Virus record (IMG/VR): IMGVR_UViG_3300036846_000555
Location: 1 to 64,000 of that record
Reading direction: 5' to 3' (one strand)
DNA: 64,000 nt
From: a virus
Below the pieces are notes generated by a model that was not told the DNA's origin, ran no database searches, and was given only the letters and a program-made list of their open reading frames with translations. Of the stretch, positions 8,858 through 34,806 are shown piece by piece (within the stretch, counting starts at the first letter, position 1; each line of letters begins with the position of its first letter). A program made the position numbers and the translations under genes.

Positions 8858-9949
8858 ATGCTGAAGAGGTTCACTACGCGCATCGGCGTGCTCGTCACGC
8901 TGGGCGTACTCGCAGTAGGAGCAGGCAGCGCACTTGCTGCCAGCCATAGCCATTGGCTCATCACGTCCACGCACCAGGTCAAGCCGTCGGTGCTCAAGCA
9001 CCTGCACGGCAAGAAGGGCAAGCACGGCAAGCAGGGCGTTCACGGTGCTACCGGTGCCACCGGAGCGACCGGCGCCACCGGCGCTCAGGGATCGCAAGGC
9101 CTCACGGGTGACACCGGGGCAACTGGCGCGAAGGGCGACACCGGCGCTACCGGAGCAACGGGCGCTCAGGGGTCGCAAGGTCTCAAGGGCGACACCGGCG
9201 CCGCTGGCACCAAGGGCGACAAGGGCGACACTGGAGCCAATGGCGCTGACGGCACCAATGGCACCAATGGTGCCAAGGGCGACAAGGGCGACAAAGGCGA
9301 CCAGGGCCTCACGGGTAACCGTGGATCCGACGGTAGCGATGGCTACAACGGGATCAACGGCGCTGGCCTGACCATCGTCAGCCACGACGGCAACTGCCGC
9401 ACGTTCTCCTGGACTGACGGCTCCGCGCCGGACTTCCAGGTCTGCAACGGCGACCAGGGCCCGAAGGGCGACACCGGCTCGGCCGGTGCCAACGGCAACG
9501 ACGGTGCTCCCGGTCAGCAGGGCTCGCAGGGCAACCCCGGCCACGACGGCGTGGACGGCAAGGACGGCGCCCCGGGTCAGACCGGCGCGACCGGACAGGA
9601 TGGCGCCCCCGGCCAGCAGGGCCCGAAGGGCAACGACGGGACTCCCGGCGTCGACGGGACTCCCGGCCACGACGGTGCAACCGGCCCGGCCGGTGCTCCC
9701 GGCCAGGCAGGTAAGGACGGCGCCCAGGGACCGCAGGGTCCGAAGGGCGACAAGGGCGACACGGGCGCGGCTGGTCCGACCGGACCGCAGGGTAACCCTG
9801 GCGCGAACGGCAAGGACGCAACACTCCCCGCCCCGACCGTCGTCTGCGTCGTGACCAACCCGCAGGGCAAGAACCCGCAGCTCGCCATCGGCGATGCGGC
9901 CTGCGCCGGTCAGACGCAGCTTCAGGTCTACACGGTGCCGACTGCCTAA
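8858..9949 (+). CDS. Secreted collagen-like protein (363 aa)
   Basis: Signal peptide ending ALA, then [16 protein letters not shown], then about 250 aa of Gly-X-Y interrupted by one short Cys-containing domain. Confidence 0.9.
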
Positions 9950-10402: not shown

Positions 10403-10632
10403 CCGCCACCCTGCGCCTGTTCGTCTCCGAGCGCGACGCCGCCGAGGACCGGCGTCTCGCCCGGATCGAACGGGCGCTAACGCAGCCGCGCTGCACGAGC
10501 TGCGGCCGGTTCGCGCGCGAGTTTTGGTTCGACTCCATCTGCCTGAACTGCATGCACGATCCGCGGCCCGCGATCCGGTTCAAGGTCGACCAGGCGCGCC
10601 GCTGGTACGCCGCCGTCGGCACATTGCGCTGA
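10399..10632 (+). CDS. Zinc-finger hypothetical protein
   Basis: RCTSCGR...ICLNC; GTGA coupling. Confidence 0.65.
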   Translation: MTATLRLFVSERDAAEDRRLARIERALTQPRCTSCGRFAREFWFDSICLNCMHDPRPAIRFKVDQARRWYAAVGTLR

Positions 10633-10671: not shown

Positions 10672-13485
10672 ATGGACCTCGTCACCATCGCGCGCGAGAA
10701 CGCAACGCTCCGCGAGGAGTTTCTGCGCCGTGGACTGGTCCCCGAGGACGAGCTGGACCAGATCGGCTGGGTGTCGCACTCCGACCTTGACCTGTGGCAG
10801 GAGGCGGGCGTCCTGGAGCTGGGCGTCACCGGATTGCAGGAGACGTGGGGTCACAGCGTCCCCGGCGGCATCCGCGTCGGTAGCGGGCATCACGGCGCGT
10901 GGGGGCTCGGCGCGCTCAGCGGCGACATCTTCAACCGGCGGATCCTGCGCGGCCGCGGCGGCCGGTTCGCCGGAAGCCTCGGCGGCAAGTCAGAGGTGCC
11001 CGGCAAGAGTCACAACCGGCGCATCAAGAACATCCTGCACCCGCCGCGCGTCTCGCGCGTCGAACATCCCGGCGCCAAGAAGGACGAGCCGATCGCGACA
11101 GTCAAGACCGCCCGGGGCATCGGACTGCCATCCAAGAAGCTGAACGTGTACGCCACCCCGCCCGCCGCGCGCGCAGGCGAGCCGCGCGCCACGCCGGGGC
11201 TGCCGGAGCGGATGAGCGCCGCACAGGCCCAGGCCGAGTTCGTCAGCCAGGCCGAGCCCGCCGCCGGGCATCCCGACGAGCTGCACGCGCTCGGCCGCGA
11301 ACGGCTGCGGCGCATGGCCGACGCGGAGCACAAGGCGGGCGTCAGCGCCTGGAAAGCCGGTGACACCGAGGCCGCGAACAAGCATCACCGCAAGGCGGGC
11401 GAGCACATGGCGGCGATCCAGAACCCCGACGAGACGCTCAAGGCGGGCACCGCCGAGATCTACGAGCGGCGCACCAAGCGGCTGGAGAAGCGGATCTCGC
11501 GCACCGTCAAGAAGGCCGGGAAGCAGAAGCGCACCCCGGCCGCCCGCCAGCCGCGCGGCCCGAACGACCTGAGCGCCGCCGAAGCGCAGTTCAACGACGC
11601 CGGACGCGTATCGCAGAAGACGCTGCTGGCCTACGTCGAGCAGGCCGCGAGCCAGCCGTCGACCGCGTCGATGTACCGCGACGCGAACGGCAACTACCAC
11701 CCGTCGCGCGCGGCCTTGCACGCCGACATCATCGACAAGCTGATGCGCCAGCACGGCACCACGACGGTGATGAAGGACGGCGTGCCGGTCGAGGAGGACG
11801 CCGGGCTGAGCGGCACCACGCCTGCGCTGAAGCCGCCCGCAGACGGCAAGCCGACCGTGATCTTCACCGGCGGCGGCTACGCGGCCGGGAAAGGCGGCGT
11901 CGTCAAGCAGCTCAAGCGGCAGGGTCAGTGGCCCGACGACGCGCTGCTGCTCGACCCCGACCTGATCAAGGCCGAGCTGCCGGAGTTCCAGAACGCCGCG
12001 ATGGACGACCCGGAAGCGAACCTGCGCGTCTACGCCGAGGCGTGGGACATCGCGCAGCAGGCGATGAAGATGGCGCAGGAGCGCGGCCTGAACGTCGTCG
12101 TCGACGGGATCACCGACACCAGCCCCGACGAGGTCGCTCAGCGGGTCAAGACCTTCACCGACAAGGGCTACGTCAACCCGCGGATCATCTACGTCAGCGT
12201 CCCGACCGACGAGGCGATCAAGCGCGCGAAGGGCCGCGCCGCGAAGGCCGAGACCCCGGCGGACCGGCGGATGATCCCCGAGGTCATCATGCGCGCCGTT
12301 CACCGCGACGTGTCCGCGACGCTGCCGGGCGTCATATCGCGCGCGAAGGACATGGGCGCCAGCGTCCAGGTGTACGACACCAATCAGGGCATCGACGAGA
12401 AGAGCGGCAAGTTCAACCCGCCGAAGCTGGTCGCCGAGGCGACACCGGAGGGCAACACCCACTACCCGGACCCCGAGGGCTACCAGACGATCCTGAACAA
12501 GGCGCAGGAGACGATCCCGAACGTGCCGGAGGTCGAGGCGCCTCAGCGTGGCGCGTGGCAGACCGGCGGGCAGATCACGTCGATCGACAAGGCGGCCGAG
12601 AAGGCCGTCGGCCGGGATCTGGCAGCGGCGACGCCGCACGCGCCAGAGGCGCATCGCGGCCAGCCGACCAGCGACGTCGGGGAGCTGTCCAGAATCGCGA
12701 AACAGCAGGGTCATCCCGCCTACCAGGCGCTGATGAACGGGGTCGCGGACGCGCTCGGCGCGACCGTTCACGACACCTCGGCGGGCAAGTCGTTCGGCGA
12801 CACCGGCAAGGACATCGCCGCGAACATGGGCCAGACGCACGTGATCATCGCGCCGCCCAAGGACGAAAAACGCGCGCTGGCGAAGGTCGCCGGGCTCGGC
12901 CAGGCCAACAACGTGACCGACCTGCACGACATGGTGCGCGGAACCGTGACCGTGCCGACGGCGCAGGATCTGCCGACCGCGATGGCGAAGATCCGGCGGG
13001 AGATGGAGCAGCAGGGCTGGGCGGTCGAGAACGTCAATCCGCGGCTGGTCGACGAGAGCGGCTCCAAGCGATCCGAGGCCAACGGCTACGGCGACACGCA
13101 ACTGATCCTCCGCGGGCCCAAGAGCGCGGGCGGCATGCTGGCCGAGCTGCAGCTCACCACCAATCCGATGTGGTGGGCCAAGGAGGTCGGGCCCGGCCAC
13201 GATCTCTACAAGCTGGAGCGCCAGGTCACGACTCGCGCATCGGCTGAGAAGCGCAAGCCGACCAACGAGGAGTCAAAGCTCGCGGGCGAGATCCAGAAGG
13301 CCGCCAAGCCGATGTATGACCGGGCGTGGGGCGCGTCGCTGAGCGGCGGCATCCACGGCCACCCGGACGTCGTCCTGGGCGATGGGAAGGAGCGGTCGGC
13401 GAGCGTCGCCAAGATCAAGGAGCTGGGCCGCAGAACGGCCGGGCTGATCAGCGGAACGCCAGCAGCAGCGAGGGCGGCCGCCTGA
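10672..13485 (+). CDS. 937-aa multidomain protein: head-targeting N-terminus, zeta-toxin-like P-loop kinase, RelA/SpoT-like nucleotidyltransferase
   Basis: Kinase: VIFTGGGYAAGKGG, LLDPDLIKAELPE, LNVVVDG, RMIPEVIMRAVH. Synthetase: PKDEKRALAKV, DLHDMVRGTV, GYGDTQL, AELQLTT, GHDLYK. Confidence 0.85.
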   Translation: MDLVTIARENATLREEFLRRGLVPEDELDQIGWVSHSDLDLWQEAGVLELGVTGLQETWGHSVPGGIRVGSGHHGAWGLGALSGDIFNRRILRGRGGRFAGSLGGKSEVPGKSHNRRIKNILHPPRVSRVEHPGAKKDEPIATVKTARGIGLPSKKLNVYATPPAARAGEPRATPGLPERMSAAQAQAEFVSQAEPAAGHPDELHALGRERLRRMADAEHKAGVSAWKAGDTEAANKHHRKAGEHMAAIQNPDETLKAGTAEIYERRTKRLEKRISRTVKKAGKQKRTPAARQPRGPNDLSAAEAQFNDAGRVSQKTLLAYVEQAASQPSTASMYRDANGNYHPSRAALHADIIDKLMRQHGTTTVMKDGVPVEEDAGLSGTTPALKPPADGKPTVIFTGGGYAAGKGGVVKQLKRQGQWPDDALLLDPDLIKAELPEFQNAAMDDPEANLRVYAEAWDIAQQAMKMAQERGLNVVVDGITDTSPDEVAQRVKTFTDKGYVNPRIIYVSVPTDEAIKRAKGRAAKAETPADRRMIPEVIMRAVHRDVSATLPGVISRAKDMGASVQVYDTNQGIDEKSGKFNPPKLVAEATPEGNTHYPDPEGYQTILNKAQETIPNVPEVEAPQRGAWQTGGQITSIDKAAEKAVGRDLAAATPHAPEAHRGQPTSDVGELSRIAKQQGHPAYQALMNGVADALGATVHDTSAGKSFGDTGKDIAANMGQTHVIIAPPKDEKRALAKVAGLGQANNVTDLHDMVRGTVTVPTAQDLPTAMAKIRREMEQQGWAVENVNPRLVDESGSKRSEANGYGDTQLILRGPKSAGGMLAELQLTTNPMWWAKEVGPGHDLYKLERQVTTRASAEKRKPTNEESKLAGEIQKAAKPMYDRAWGASLSGGIHGHPDVVLGDGKERSASVAKIKELGRRTAGLISGTPAAARAAA

Positions 13486-14222
13486 TGGCGCGCGACCCGT
13501 TGACACCCGCGGACCCGGGCGGCACGCAGGACACGTCCGTCGACCCGTCGCAGCTCGGCCCGAACATAGAGCCGCCGGACGGAGGATCGGGCTCCAGCCT
13601 GGACGGCGGCGACTACGACTACTGGCTGCGCGACGGCACGACGCCATACCGCACGCTCGGCCCGGCGGAGGGCGACGTGTTCTCCCAGGACGACGACGGC
13701 TGGATGATGCAGCACGCCGTCGACCGCGACAAGCTGTGGCCGTCCAGCGCGGAGCGGGTGGCGGGCATGATCGGCGGGCGCCAGCGGCTGATCGAGCCGT
13801 CGAAGGGCACCGCGCCGCTGTACCCCGGGCCTGACGAGGACTTCTCGCCGGTCGAGTCGCCCGACTACCTGGCCGAGGCCGACTCCAGCGGCGATCTGCC
13901 GCAGCCCGACGACGACGCCACCAACCTGCCGGAGCCGCCGCCGTCGATGGCGCAGCAGCCGGATGATTCTTCCGCGGGCATGACCGAGCAGCAGATCCGT
14001 GACGCGGGCCTGCGCATCGACGTGCCGTTCGAAAGTCCGCTTCCGGTGGACTTGAAGTACAAGGACACGGGGCAGCAGGCGTGGACTCCGCCTCCGGGGT
14101 TCCGTCAGGGCCTGCCTCCGATCGACGACTGGATCGCGGAACGGCTAGGCGTGCCGCGCGACTTAGGAACGGAAGGGGCCGAGAGTGGCGGTAGCGGAGA
14201 GACCGGGGAGCCCGGCGCCTGA
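13485..14222 (+). CDS. Acidic Pro/Asp-rich protein translationally coupled to the toxin-like gene
   Basis: TGATG overlap; the true start is 13485 (MARDPLTPAD), not 13326. Confidence 0.75.
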   Translation: MARDPLTPADPGGTQDTSVDPSQLGPNIEPPDGGSGSSLDGGDYDYWLRDGTTPYRTLGPAEGDVFSQDDDGWMMQHAVDRDKLWPSSAERVAGMIGGRQRLIEPSKGTAPLYPGPDEDFSPVESPDYLAEADSSGDLPQPDDDATNLPEPPPSMAQQPDDSSAGMTEQQIRDAGLRIDVPFESPLPVDLKYKDTGQQAWTPPPGFRQGLPPIDDWIAERLGVPRDLGTEGAESGGSGETGEPGA

Positions 14223-20165: not shown

Positions 20166-21596
20166 GTGTCGGTCTCCGCACCTCAGCCCGCGGCGCCTGC
20201 TCCGCCACCCGCCGCGGGTGGCGGCGGCAGCTTCGAACAGCTCCATCCCCGTGGGCGGGGTGGGAAATGGATCGTCTCGCACGGCGCCGGGTACGGGGCC
20301 GGAGGGCCTGACCAGACCACCCTGCAGCTTCAGCAGCGCCTGAAGCAGCTCGGCTTCGACGTCCCCGCCGACGGCAAGTACGGTCCGGCGACGAAGCAGG
20401 CCGTCCAGGCGTTCCAGAACCGCTACGGGCTCCAAACGAGCGGCGGCGTGGACGCCGCGACGATGGCGATTCTGCAGAACCCGCCGCCGCAGACGCTCAA
20501 GCAGGCGCAGAAATCGCTGGGGCTCACCGCAAAGGGCACGCCGATCCCGACGAAGACGTCCAAGAAGGTGGCCAAGAAGACGTCCACGGCCAAGACCGCG
20601 ACCGGCGCGACCCGGAGTAAGGGCAAGACGATCTCGTCGCCCCAGGCGACGCTCACGCGGGCCCTGAACGCCACCGTGCAGGGGCCGGGGCATCTCGGTA
20701 ACGGCAACCTCGCTCAGGGCGCGGGCCTGACCGGCACGTCGAGCCCGGCCGTTTCGAACTTGCAGGCGACGCTCACCGCCGCCGGATTCAAGGTCACCAA
20801 GGACGGGCGGTTCGGCCCGCAGACGGAGGCAGCCGTGAGACAGCTCCAGCAGGCGCACGGGCTCCAGGTCGACGGCATCGTCGGACCCGAGACGAAGGGC
20901 CTGCTGATCGGCCTGGCCGCGGCTGCGCCGAAGGCCGCTTCGAAGGCCAGGGCCAAGAAGACCACGCGCGCGATCACGAGCCGGTCGATTCCGGGGCAGC
21001 CCGCCGTTCTGCGCACCAAGGCCGGGACGCCGCGGCACAGCGGCCGGTCCGGCGGAAGCCGGATGAAGCTCCAGCCGCCGAAGAAGGCGCCCGCGACCCT
21101 GAAGTACTCCGCGGAGGTGCCGACCGAGCAGCCCGAGCTGGAGGAGACGACCGTCCAGTTCGGCTACGGCGGCCAGCCGTCACGCTCGATCAAGGACGGC
21201 CGCGACACCACGCCCGCCGCTGACCAGCCGGTGTGGACACGGACCGGCGTCCAGACCGACATCGGCGACCTGGCGATCCCGGACGGCCGTGACCCGGCGC
21301 TGCCGACACCCAGCGTCGGCGAGATCCTCGCTGACGGCCGCGAGCCCGTGCCGCCGCTCTCCGGCCAGACGCTCGCCGACGGCCGCGAGCCTGTGCCGCC
21401 GCCGCCCGGCGACGAGACGATCCCGGACGGCCGCAACTACATCCGGACGGTGTCGCTGCTGGCCGAGGCCGTGCTGGAGCGCAAGGCCGCCAAGACCGGC
21501 ATCGAGTTCGTCTGCGCGCGGGCCCGCGAGCAGGCGCTGCGCGAGCGGCTCAGCGAGGCGGGCTACACCACGAGGAGGAGCAATGACCCTGCTTGA
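20166..21596 (+). CDS. Protein with two peptidoglycan-binding (PG_binding_1-like) domains, DGREP repeats and a C-terminal shared helix motif
   Basis: LQQRLKQLGF...DGKYGPATKQAVQAFQ...GL...G.VD and LQATLTAAGF...DGRFGPQTEAAVRQLQ...GLQVDGIVGPET. No catalytic domain was recognised. Confidence 0.85.
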   Translation: MSVSAPQPAAPAPPPAAGGGGSFEQLHPRGRGGKWIVSHGAGYGAGGPDQTTLQLQQRLKQLGFDVPADGKYGPATKQAVQAFQNRYGLQTSGGVDAATMAILQNPPPQTLKQAQKSLGLTAKGTPIPTKTSKKVAKKTSTAKTATGATRSKGKTISSPQATLTRALNATVQGPGHLGNGNLAQGAGLTGTSSPAVSNLQATLTAAGFKVTKDGRFGPQTEAAVRQLQQAHGLQVDGIVGPETKGLLIGLAAAAPKAASKARAKKTTRAITSRSIPGQPAVLRTKAGTPRHSGRSGGSRMKLQPPKKAPATLKYSAEVPTEQPELEETTVQFGYGGQPSRSIKDGRDTTPAADQPVWTRTGVQTDIGDLAIPDGRDPALPTPSVGEILADGREPVPPLSGQTLADGREPVPPPPGDETIPDGRNYIRTVSLLAEAVLERKAAKTGIEFVCARAREQALRERLSEAGYTTRRSNDPA

Positions 21597-31720: not shown

Positions 31721-33226
31721 ATGGGCGCCACCACGGTCACGGACCCTTCCACGGAGACGCTTGAGCTGCGGGAGGCGATGTACGCGCTCCCGCGCAGCGC
31801 CGTCGAGTTCCCCACCGAGCTGCAGGAAGAGCGCGTCCAGCGGCTCGTCGGCCACGGTCTGAGCCTGGAGGAAGCCACCGCCCGCGAGGAGCAGGAGCGC
31901 TCCAAGCTGCTGCCGCTGCACATCCTGCGCCCGTGCGTCGGCAAGGGCAAGGGCCGCCACATCTACGAGGCCAAGATGCTGGAGGAGAACGCCCACAAGT
32001 TCGCGGGCTGGCGCCAGTACATCGACCACCTCTCCCCCGAGGCGCGCCGCGCGGCAAAGGGTCTGCCGCGCTCGATCCGCGACCTGGGCGGCCGGATCGT
32101 GGAGAGCTACTGGGACGGCAGCGTGCCACCCAGCCCCGACAAGGGGTTCGGCCAGGGCGCCGTCGTCGGCTGGTCGCTCCCGACACCGTTCATTCGCGAG
32201 CTGGCCGAGAACGACCCAGAGCTGGTCGAAGCTTCGATCTCCGCGAATGCCACCGGCGTGCAGCCGACGATGCGTGACGGCCGCCGGGCGTGGCTGGTCG
32301 AAGGCATCGAGGACCGCGGAAGCGTTGACTGGGTGACGGAGGCGGGCGCTGGCGGCCGCGTCGTCGCGTTGATGGAAGCTGCCTACGAGGAGGACGGGAT
32401 GGGACTGCTTGAGTCCATGACCGACGAGGAGTTCATCACCTACGTCGAAGAGGTGCGCCCCCACCTGCTCACCGAGCAGTCCGACGGCGACGCCGAGGAT
32501 GCGGAGGACGGCGGCGACGACGAGCTTGAGGAGATGATCGCGCGGATGATGAAGCGCAACCCCAAGCTGAACCGCAGCCAGGCCGAGGCGCTCGCCAAGA
32601 AGGCGCTCGCTCAGTCAAGTTCATCAGTGGCGGAAGCCGAGACCACAAAGGAGACAGACATGGGTGCGATCACCCCAGAGGCGCTCCAGGAGGCTCTCCA
32701 GAGTGAGGACTCTCGCAGCGCCCTGGAGGCCGTCATCGAGCCGATGGTCGAGCAGCGCGTCAAGGCGCTGGTCGAGTCGGCGGTGGCGAGCGAGCGCGAG
32801 CTGATCCGCGCGGAGGCGCATGCTGACGCGGACCGGCAGCTTGAGCTGCGCGACATGCGCGACGTGGCTCACCGGCAGATCAGCGAGGCGAAGCTTCCCG
32901 GAGCGTTCTCGGACCGCGCGAAGGCGCTGTTTGAGATCACCGACAACGGCCCGACGTCGACGCTGGACGTCGTCGACGACGTCGACGAGGGGGGCGCGGT
33001 CACCAAGAAGGCGGCCGACAAGCTCCAGGAGGCGGTGGATGCCGCCATCCAGGATCAGCGCGAGCTGCTCGCCGCGGCGAACCCGACGACCGTCCGCGGT
33101 CAGGGTCCGGGCGCTCCCGCCAAGCGCGGCGAGGGCGACGAGGAGCCGAAGAAGGGCGAGGGAACGCTCTACGGCGCTCTGCTTCAGGAATCGGGAGTCG
33201 ATCCCGCGACAGCGTGGAACGACTGA
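31721..33226 (+). CDS. Prohead protease and scaffold fusion
   Basis: LHILRPCVG...YIDH...RSIRDLGG...ASISANA...SVDWVTEAGAGG protease part, then an acidic coiled-coil scaffold with many LxE sites. It lies upstream of the capsid gene. Confidence 0.85.
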   Translation: MGATTVTDPSTETLELREAMYALPRSAVEFPTELQEERVQRLVGHGLSLEEATAREEQERSKLLPLHILRPCVGKGKGRHIYEAKMLEENAHKFAGWRQYIDHLSPEARRAAKGLPRSIRDLGGRIVESYWDGSVPPSPDKGFGQGAVVGWSLPTPFIRELAENDPELVEASISANATGVQPTMRDGRRAWLVEGIEDRGSVDWVTEAGAGGRVVALMEAAYEEDGMGLLESMTDEEFITYVEEVRPHLLTEQSDGDAEDAEDGGDDELEEMIARMMKRNPKLNRSQAEALAKKALAQSSSSVAEAETTKETDMGAITPEALQEALQSEDSRSALEAVIEPMVEQRVKALVESAVASERELIRAEAHADADRQLELRDMRDVAHRQISEAKLPGAFSDRAKALFEITDNGPTSTLDVVDDVDEGGAVTKKAADKLQEAVDAAIQDQRELLAAANPTTVRGQGPGAPAKRGEGDEEPKKGEGTLYGALLQESGVDPATAWND

Positions 33227-33750: not shown

Positions 33751-34806
33751 ATGAACGGCAATCCATATGGGGTCTTCGGACGGCCGATCCGGCTGCTTGA
33801 GGCCTACCGCGAGTGGCGCGACGAGCGGATGCTGGAGGAGGCCGACTCCAAGGCCGACTTCCCATCCTTCCTGTACGGCCCGGTCCGTCAGTCGATGTGG
33901 ACCGGCTACAGCCGCGCCCAGGCGCAGTACCAGCGCTACACCCGCCAGGAGAACGCACCCGACTTCCGTGACCGGCGGCTGCGCGGCCTGAACGGGCTGC
34001 AGGGAATCGGCTACGTGGGCGACCACGGGCACTACCCGGGCATGGCGCGGACGGAGCGTCCGCCCGCCCGGCTGGCGGTCGACACCTACGGCGGCGTCTA
34101 CCAGATCACCCGCCAGGCGATCATCAACGACGACAGCAACGAGCTGCTGAACCGCAACCCGGCCGACATGGGCTACGCGGCCGGGGTGTTCATCCTGCAG
34201 ACCGTGATCGCGATGATCCAGAACCCCGGCAACGCGCCGGACGGCAACCCGTTCTACAGCGTCGCTCGCGGCAACCAGGTGGTCACGCCGCTGTCCGAGG
34301 ACGCGCTCGCGGACGCGATCGGGTTCATGGAGGCCCAGGTCGACGACGACGGCCGCCAGATCGTCGTCACGCCGCAGGTGCTGGTGGTCCGCAACGCCCG
34401 GATGCAGATGATTGCGCAGCGGATCCTGAACTCGACGCAGACCGGCACGCAGATCCAGTACACCGGCGCAGCCGGTGCCGGGTCCAACGTGTTCGACAAG
34501 GGCACGATCAACCCGCTGGCCGGGATCCTGCCCGCCGACGGCGTGATTCGCGACCCGTGGTTCAGCGATTCCAACGACTGGTACCTGTTCGCCGACCCCG
34601 GCGACGTCCCGTCGTTCGCCGTGGGCTTCCTCAACGGGCAGTCGGAGCCGCAGGTGATGCTCAAGGACCCGATGGTCCGGATGGCGCTCGGAGCGGGTAC
34701 CGACCCGTACCAGTTCGAACTCGACTCGGTCGACTTCAAGGTGAGGTCGGACTTCGGCGTGGCGCCTGTCGATCCCAAGGGCGCGTTCCGCTCAATCGTC
34801 CCGTAA
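33751..34806 (+). CDS. Major capsid protein (Mu gpT-like, HK97 fold)
   Basis: True start 33751 (GAGGAG RBS). ADFPSFL...TYGGVYQITRQAIINDD...WYLFADP...FLNGQSEP...FKVRSDFG..VDPKG. Confidence 0.9.
   Translation: MNGNPYGVFGRPIRLLEAYREWRDERMLEEADSKADFPSFLYGPVRQSMWTGYSRAQAQYQRYTRQENAPDFRDRRLRGLNGLQGIGYVGDHGHYPGMARTERPPARLAVDTYGGVYQITRQAIINDDSNELLNRNPADMGYAAGVFILQTVIAMIQNPGNAPDGNPFYSVARGNQVVTPLSEDALADAIGFMEAQVDDDGRQIVVTPQVLVVRNARMQMIAQRILNSTQTGTQIQYTGAAGAGSNVFDKGTINPLAGILPADGVIRDPWFSDSNDWYLFADPGDVPSFAVGFLNGQSEPQVMLKDPMVRMALGAGTDPYQFELDSVDFKVRSDFGVAPVDPKGAFRSIVP

Follow-up and report, generated by a model that had tools for sequence, protein, structure and literature searches.

A phage protein that joins a zeta/AvrRxo1-type kinase to a Tas1-like RelA/SpoT synthetase, a probable modular effector

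The RelA/SpoT homologue (RSH) synthetases Apk2, found fused to MuF domains in temperate phages, and Tas1 (Apk1), delivered by a Pseudomonas type VI secretion system, are well-described members of a common fold (PMC10083569, PMC12226406). Among P-loop phosphotransferases, AvrRxo1 is a Xanthomonas type III effector that acts as an NAD 3'-kinase, and zeta and PezT are UDP-GlcNAc 3'-kinases (PMC5491322, PMC5087710, PMC5923241). In phages, zeta-like kinases have been reported fused to MuF, and RelA/SpoT domains either fused to MuF or within polyvalent proteins (PMC5512222; PMC5576092). Here we analyse the virus record IMGVR_UViG_3300036846_000555 of IMG/VR, a single contig of 122,349 bp whose first 64 kb (positions 1 to 64,000) form the window considered in this study. 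A gene of this window (10672-13485) encodes a 937-aa protein, hereafter the target, in which a kinase of the zeta/AvrRxo1 type and a RelA/SpoT-type synthetase lie in one chain behind an N-terminal leader and a short sequence tag. Our analysis suggests that the target is probably a two-enzyme effector for host takeover, built in modules like the "polyvalent proteins" of phages.

The kinase and synthetase domains

A sequence-only reading of this stretch had described the open reading frame (ORF) as a probable double toxin of 937 aa, and we find that the gene is real and that every motif quoted in that reading is in its place (Table 1). The G+C content at third codon positions (GC3) is 0.92, there is no other in-frame start between the upstream stop codon (10630-10632) and the ATG, and homologues start at the same position. 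About 28 full-length homologues, with identities of 39-98%, are found on phage contigs of 107-125 kb. Their alignment (A1) contains long invariant runs, and the gene is real and under selection over its whole length. The AlphaFold (AF2) model of the full 937 aa has a mean predicted local distance difference test score (pLDDT) of 78.7.

The kinase domain is recognised by the Pfam family Zeta_toxin (PF06414) over aa 389-571 (E 3.1e-22; 79.4 bits vs a cut-off of 22.3). A Foldseek search returned zeta, AvrRxo1 and PezT at E ~3e-7, and VIA re-alignment of the model (aa 327-619) gave Z 19.2 for AvrRxo1 over 248 residues (root-mean-square deviation 3.4), compared with 16.0 for zeta, 14.7 for PezT, 10.9 for the gonococcal zeta and ~10 (10.2) for polynucleotide kinases. 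The N-terminal extension of the solved members is included in this match. Since Pfam, Foldseek and the VIA Z-scores agree, the predicted kinase fold is the zeta/AvrRxo1 one, and the model is nearest to the NAD 3'-kinase AvrRxo1. Narrower queries were far less informative: the profile of the close family (A1) reached zeta in the Protein Data Bank (PDB) at E 0.08 only, together with spurious lectin repeats, and phmmer of the full protein against the PDB gave noise only. The PHROG family 16619, "minor head protein", spans the kinase of the target, which speaks for packaging.

The substrate loop of the kinase departs from that of zeta. Opposite EGTGRT, a zeta loop that presumably helps to bind UDP-GlcNAc, the target has DGITDT, so that a strict UDP-GlcNAc (UNAG) kinase is unsupported and this substrate is not to be assumed. 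Lys407 and Asp430 are invariant among the homologues (A1), and a profile alignment sets D-P-D of the target opposite D-N-D of zeta, which would make D430 the counterpart of Asp67, the catalytic residue of zeta (PMC5923241). The P-loop phosphotransferase fold, the N-terminal extension and the catalytic Asp are common to the target and to AvrRxo1, zeta and PezT (PDB 4z8v, 1gvn and 2p5t), from which the target differs in that its kinase is embedded in a 937-aa chain. One metagenomic homologue (P0023; 1311 aa) is interrupted by an intein of ~400 aa with the homing-endonuclease domains PF05204 and PF14528, which sits exactly within the P-loop, between GGGYA and SGKGG, and whose residue 1 is apparently Pro, not Cys. 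Inteins prefer conserved functional sites, and the location of this one inside the P-loop suggests that the P-loop matters.

The synthetase domain is less easily reached from its own sequence. PF04607 (RelA_SpoT) gave no match to the C-terminal part of the target up to E 10, and the C-terminal 277 aa (aa 661-937) had no real match in Pfam and NCBIfam. With the same part as query, an exhaustive phmmer search yielded 285 representative proteins (E <=1e-3); in most of them the RSH domain forms the C-terminal end of chains of 150-4,400 aa. Because direct searches and the narrow A1 profile gave nothing useful, the link to RSH enzymes needed a wider alignment (A2), in which the target domain is aligned with 27 short relatives. 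PF04607 matches 18 of these 28 members, and the A2 profile finds Tas1 (6ox6) at E 5.9e-21 with 78.5 bits; RelQ, RelP, RelA and SaEAS come next at ~1e-5, the best of these other RSH proteins reaching 27.5 bits, and the sequence matches of this profile do not include CapRel. The model of the domain is confident (pLDDT 92.8; predicted template modelling score, pTM, 0.90), its top 48 Foldseek matches are all RSH alarmone synthetases with Tas1 first, and VIA gave Z 12.8, with 11.3 for CapRel. Both domains that the sequence-only reading had named from motifs are therefore borne out by profile searches and predicted folds, the C-terminal one being confirmed as a RelA/SpoT-type synthetase whose nearest solved relative by sequence is Tas1. 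SaEAS, the exported alarmone synthetase of Streptomyces albidoflavus (PMC12691689; 8vx3), ranks with the best structural matches (Z 12.8) and resembles the target in its actinobacterial setting, a likely one for the target, and in having an RSH domain behind interchangeable delivery domains, but its sequence match to the target profile is weak (27 bits).

Across 21 homologues, nine residues never vary (K730, R734, K738, D753, R756, G805, Y806, E825 and Q827), and these line up with Tas1 motifs. The syn2 (D-x-x-R-x-T) and syn4 (E-x-Q-x-[NT]-[ST]) motifs follow the Tas1/Apk pattern and not that of RelA and (p)ppGpp synthesis. Apk-type enzymes have been characterised by R-x-T in syn2, G-x-N in syn3 and a syn4 other than I-R-T, as opposed to S-x-H in syn3 of RSH enzymes (PMC12226406). 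The syn3 motif of the target, GYGDTQ (GYRD in the wider family), is neither, and adenine nucleotides as the acceptor are for this reason a best guess and not a result. Structurally the kinase lies closer to AvrRxo1 than it does to zeta, and the closest enzyme to the synthetase by sequence is Tas1, which makes (p)ppApp; the substrates proposed here for the two enzymes are tentative.

Leader, tag and the question of packaging

In the model, helices span aa 3-61; the leader carries a conserved ARENA..LREEFLRRG...LD.W module (A1) and ends in an L-x-E that nearly all homologues keep. Where the target has RRILRGRGGRF in the alignment, five homologues (P0006, P0017-19 and P0022) show the canonical LQE-x-W-x-E-x-LHPRGRGGKW, and we therefore regard the stretch in the target as a diverged copy of the tag W-x-E-x-LHPRGRGGK[WF]; the likeness to HPRGRGGKW of the 20166 protein, which the sequence-only reading had pointed out, is real. 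The N-terminal 365 aa have no real match in Pfam and NCBIfam, and no structural match covers helices 201-283, which might conceivably be an antitoxin of the epsilon type acting in cis, as in EzeT. A hidden Markov model (HMM) of the "mid" segment between tag and kinase matches the core family only, and so does a word-indexed search with aa 1-130 (close family only). The HMM of aa 1-130, in contrast, finds the leader at the head of many proteins with other cargo: one zeta, two zeta, zeta and RSH, or RSH alone. Zeta plus RSH, the architecture of the target, occurs behind the leader in P0033, P0071, P0084, P0124 and P0142, and in the reverse order (RSH-zeta) in P0191. Tandem zeta-type kinases with the same leader and without a synthetase are seen in P0029, P0030, P0032, P0034, P0035, P0039 and P0062. 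The canonical tag motif is present in 55 of the 210 relatives retrieved, and Pfam searches of ten distant carrier-bearing proteins found no other named cargo save one weak GNAT. As judged from these sequences, a constant carrier with swappable cargo is the architecture of polymorphic or polyvalent effectors. As in the polyvalent proteins (Iyer, Burroughs, Anand, de Souza, Aravind 2017, PMC5512222), unrelated conflict-type enzymes share one phage polypeptide, but that work describes neither a kinase and an RSH domain in one chain nor a leader with an HPR-type tag, and it assigns processing to zincin-like peptidase domains, not to a head protease.

The distribution of the tag within the genome bears on how such a carrier might be used. 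Among the ORFs of the 122-kb genome that have GC3 support, all of which we scanned, the canonical tag is present in the 20166 protein and, in five copies, in three ORFs after the portal gene, and nowhere else. These three large ORFs lie straight after the portal (genome 92570-102000, outside the window) and are chains of enzyme modules, comprising a weak GNAT, a CCA-adding enzyme with an HD domain, an Aph1-like hydrolase and DUF7178. Their tags (LHPR[GD]R.G[KRV]W) stand at module boundaries, each 8-12 residues after [LV]-x-E-A. MuF was not detected in the first portal-adjacent protein by Pfam or PHROGs. The 20166-21596 protein has a Pro/Ala/Gly-rich N-terminus followed by the tag, one PG_binding_3 and two PG_binding_1 domains and no recognised catalytic domain, and is possibly a virion-associated wall binder rather than an endolysin.

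The hydrolase module (residues 640-830 of the second portal-adjacent ORF; genome ~98557-99129) matches Aph1 (7smg) at E 7.7e-12, ahead of the hydrolase domains of SpoT and Rel. Of the six residues of the Aph1 specificity signature (PMC10083569), five are identical in the module (D24, R96, R119, K133 and Y134) and D116 falls in a gap. Two related contigs (125,432 and 122,419 bp) hold both a homologue of the target and the Aph1-like module. As Aph1 is an immunity enzyme in Apk2 systems (PMC10083569), a (p)ppApp-making synthetase would fit here. The target further resembles Apk2 and Tas1 in the RSH fold, in being phage-encoded and in having its synthetase at the C-terminal end of a carrier. It differs from them in the absence of MuF or PAAR, in its position away from the portal, in its fusion to a second enzyme, in its syn3 (GY[RG]D, not G-x-N) and in its hydrolase, which is not encoded by a neighbouring immunity gene but forms part of a different tagged protein, 85 kb off. 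The target is accordingly not placed among the MuF toxins (Apk2), because it has no MuF domain and does not lie beside the portal, though it probably works like them. The nearest RSH relative from a cultured phage, and the sole match of a tblastn search against 50,697 phage records, is the RSH part of Bordetella phage vB_BbrM_PHB04, where it forms the C-terminus of a post-portal protein. In this cultured 94-kb myovirus (MF663786.1 35166-39176), the gene after the portal encodes a 493-aa "hypothetical" protein that ends in a RelA_SpoT domain; next come a 69-aa ORF and an HD_4 hydrolase, whose annotation reads bifunctional (p)ppGpp enzyme. This trio has an Apk2-IapK-Aph1-like layout (PMC10083569).

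The leader invites comparison with a classical case of capsid loading. The internal proteins of T4 (IPI-III and Alt) carry capsid-targeting sequences, which are removed because gp21 cleaves after L/I-x-E. Similarly, the N-terminal leader of the target ends in L-x-E, its cargo would be host-directed enzymes, and a candidate S77 protease is encoded in the scaffold gene; the differences are a leader of ~57 aa that is helical, as against 10-19 aa in T4, and an extra conserved tag after the site. The candidate protease lies in the first 260 aa of ORF 31721-33226, for which ESM Atlas gave a score of 0.95 with Peptidase_S77 in 21 of 30 matches. Since Pfam, PHROG and PDB sequence searches with this ORF were blank, we treat the S77 assignment as a lead only. 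LQE occurs 17 times genome-wide vs 5.7 expected (threefold) and is concentrated in the scaffold, the portal and the portal-adjacent proteins, with four copies in the acidic C-terminal half of ORF 31721-33226; of eight [LVIM]QEA in the proteome, seven lie in scaffold, portal or portal-adjacent proteins. In the capsid protein, LLEA and MLEEA directly precede the start of the capsid fold. Two relatives (P0059 and P0064) have Portal_Mu and Mu_F joined to zeta domains that bear the same N-terminal extension. When the leader (aa 1-105) was modelled in complex with the capsid and protease-scaffold proteins, the score was 0.16 (mark 0.32), which carries no weight either way. Taken together, we consider capsid loading of the target an evenly balanced proposition, and cleavage at LQE, which we infer, plausible.

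Genome setting

The genome has a G+C content of 68.6% and almost all of its genes lie on the + strand. It belongs to a contractile-tailed phage, as shown by a tail sheath match (PHROG 279, E 7e-53), and also has a long ORF of tape-measure size. The portal gene lies outside the window (genome positions 90,492-92,540; PHROG 10963, E 2e-28). Cultured-phage DNA matches (megablast) are only short collagen-repeat ones to Streptomyces phages, confined within this region to 8858-9949, and since the matches are to Streptomyces phages alone an actinobacterial host seems likely. The collagen-repeat protein itself (363 aa; Pfam Collagen, E 2e-39, and tail-fibre PHROGs) is encoded 700 bp upstream of the operon of the target. 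Downstream, a gene that overlaps the stop codon of the target (13482-14222) encodes a 246-aa acidic, proline-rich and probably disordered protein, which has 76% identity to its counterpart in one related phage (L001) and no match in Pfam and PHROG family searches; as a candidate immunity protein it was set aside because of its apparent disorder and the absence of a family match. Among the neighbours of the target, which have no family matches, we recognised no antitoxin-like or Tis1/IapK-like gene and no epsilon or Arc1-like partner. The positions of all features are collected in Table 1.

Table 1. Features of the target gene and of other genes in the 64-kb window, with the evidence for each (numbering of the window)
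Feature	Position	Strand	Evidence
Whole gene, 937 aa (P0001)	10672..13485	+	ORF/translation, GC3 0.92, homologues, AF2 model
Helical leader, aa 1-57, ends L-Q-E; candidate targeting segment that would be removed by head protease	10672..10842	+	model, A1, HMM
L-Q-E, aa 55-57, candidate prohead-protease site	10834..10842	+	sequence; homologues
Disordered stretch, aa 60-123, with diverged tag	10849..11040	+	pLDDT <50
Diverged tag RRILRGRGGRF, aa 89-99	10936-10968	+	sequence
Small beta unit (aa 127-160), followed by long helical hairpins (aa 183-283)	11050..11520	+	model; close family only
Zeta/AvrRxo1-type P-loop kinase, aa 327-619	11650..12528	+	Pfam PF06414, VIA, Foldseek, zeta alignment
Walker A GGGYAAGKG, aa 400-408	11869-11895	+	sequence
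DPD, aa 428-430	11953-11961	+	D430 aligns to zeta Asp67
VVVDG, aa 475-479		+	sequence
DGITDT	12103-12120	+	aligns to zeta EGTGRT
Tas1-like RelA/SpoT synthetase, aa 667-897	12670..13362	+	profile A2, relatives' PF04607, fold
syn1 P728-K730-R734-K738	12853-12885	+	alignment
syn2 DMVRGT, aa 753-758	12928-12945	+	alignment
syn3 GYGDTQ (GYGD aa 805-808)	13084-13101	+	alignment
syn4 ELQLTT, aa 825-830	13144-13161	+	alignment
GHDLY, aa 842-846 (following helix G842-H843...Y846)	13195-13209	+	alignment
C-terminal helical tail, aa 898-937, family-specific	13363..13482	+	alignment, HMMs, model
Canonical tag LHPRGRGGKW, aa 26-35 of 476-aa protein 20166-21596	20241..20270	+	sequence
Candidate prohead protease (S77/T4 gp21-like N-terminal part) and acidic scaffold-like region, four LQE	31721..33226	+	ESM Atlas
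Major capsid protein	33751..34806	+	Pfam Phage_capsid_4 E 1e-35, aa 68-384 of stop-to-stop frame

Possible roles of the two-enzyme protein

The explanation that we prefer, and that we credit about as much as we doubt, is that the target is a carrier-borne effector with two enzymes that look intact, an ATP-dependent kinase and a pyrophosphokinase making (p)ppApp-type nucleotides, and that it probably enters the procapsid, undergoes trimming after L-x-E and is injected. It would be synthesised late and loaded into the procapsid by way of the leader or the tag, an S77-type head protease would trim it after L-x-E, and it would enter the host together with the DNA. There, the synthetase would move the pyrophosphate of ATP to the 3'-OH of adenine nucleotides, giving (p)ppApp and draining ATP, and the kinase would act on a hydroxyl group of either a nucleotide cofactor or a nucleotide sugar, something NAD-like being likelier than UDP-GlcNAc. 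The tagged Aph1-like hydrolase could then limit or reverse the product of the synthetase, or protect the producing cell. Of the packaged, LQE-cut and injected double toxin that the sequence-only reading had envisaged, the two enzymes have thus held up, and packaging, cleavage and injection have gained indirect support; the label "toxin" would follow from the relatives by analogy. In a more elaborate form, which we consider rather unlikely, the kinase-synthetase effector and the tagged Aph1-like hydrolase would constitute a matched capsid-loaded set, all freed by the S77-type protease at [LV]-x-E, and after injection would cause a brief, self-limiting collapse of the ATP and NAD-type pools of the host and so shut it down, after which the hydrolase would restore adenine nucleotides for phage replication. 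A further version would have the fused enzymes act sequentially on one nucleotide to give an undescribed product.

Several observations weigh against the preferred explanation. On the enzymatic side, the Walker A motif is GKG and not GK[ST] (family members have Gly or Ser after the Lys), syn3 is of neither recognised type, and the benefit to the phage of draining ATP as infection begins is not obvious. The Aph1-like module, as a neighbour of the CCA-adding enzyme, may equally serve to counter tRNA pyrophosphorylation by host toxSAS enzymes. As to delivery, the tag of the target lacks His-Pro and its site is LQET instead of LQEA, only a language-model score names the S77 protease, and Pfam finds no MuF (PF04233) in the target, in agreement with the sequence-only reading. 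The gene is also ~78 kb from the portal, with the capsid gene 20 kb downstream and many small ORFs between, and the distant family members P0033 and P0041 likewise lie amid small unknown genes.

These points of genomic context would also fit a different role for the same enzymes, namely an unpackaged product of an early or middle gene that rewires nucleotide pools or disarms nucleotide-based immunity, with the leader and tag serving regulation, partner binding or turnover. We regard this as possible but on the unlikely side: the location of the target, as of its distant relatives, away from the portal and amid small ORFs of unknown function, the missing MuF domain and the presence of the tag on a peptidoglycan-binding protein, which is no classic capsid-interior protein, are all in its favour, but the other copies of the tag are restricted to multi-enzyme proteins straight after the portal, zeta and RSH domains each occur elsewhere as fusions to portal or MuF proteins or behind them, and the disordered tag region follows a site that the scaffold and the portal also have. 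RNA ends are a less probable target still, and one that we think clearly improbable. Here a polynucleotide-kinase-like domain and a CapRel/FaRel2-like tRNA 3'-pyrophosphokinase would block or remodel host tRNA, as might be read from the structural matches to polynucleotide kinases (Z ~10) and CapRel (Z 11.3) and from the tagged CCA-adding enzyme beside the alarmone-hydrolase-like module in the same genome; AvrRxo1 (19.2) and zeta (16.0), however, stand well above the polynucleotide kinases (10.2), and the RSH profile goes to Tas1 with 78.5 bits and does not list CapRel among its sequence matches.

Catalytic death of one or both domains, leaving a structural protein or a nucleotide-binding decoy, would account for the non-canonical GKG, the unusual GYGDTQ and the missing direct Pfam match to RelA_SpoT. 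Against this stand dozens of invariant active-site-type residues in homologues down to 41% identity, the intein in the P-loop of a homologue and the compact, confident predicted folds, and we hold it to be very improbable. Finally, both domain families are classic toxins of toxin-antitoxin systems (PMC10532202, PMC7229694), and the target could be imagined as a toxin that a prophage carries for toxin-antitoxin function or superinfection exclusion, in the manner of epsilon/zeta or toxSAS systems. We give this hardly any credence, as no antitoxin-like neighbour was recognised, the acidic, proline-rich protein encoded downstream (246 aa) having no family match, and a carrier with a tag and several cargo modules is the architecture of polyvalent effectors.

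Literature searches with the tag strings returned unrelated papers only. Within a limited coverage, which leaves absence unproven, we found no description of a kinase-synthetase fusion, of this MuF-less leader or of the tag. Descriptions of zeta-like kinases and of phage (p)ppApp synthetases (Apk2) have so far treated them only as separate MuF add-ons, and the question of their carriage in the capsid and their benefit to the phage has been posed in the papers on Apk2 (PMC10083569, PMC5576092). What sets this family apart is that both enzymes occur in one chain, and on a MuF-less carrier with a tag common to portal-adjacent cargo proteins. The family therefore offers a compact system for asking whether such effectors enter the capsid and are processed by the head protease, what nucleotides an AvrRxo1-like phage kinase acts on, and how a phage tolerates its own ATP-draining enzyme; the Aph1-like hydrolase, which accompanies the gene in all three related phage genomes that we examined, adds to its value as a test system.

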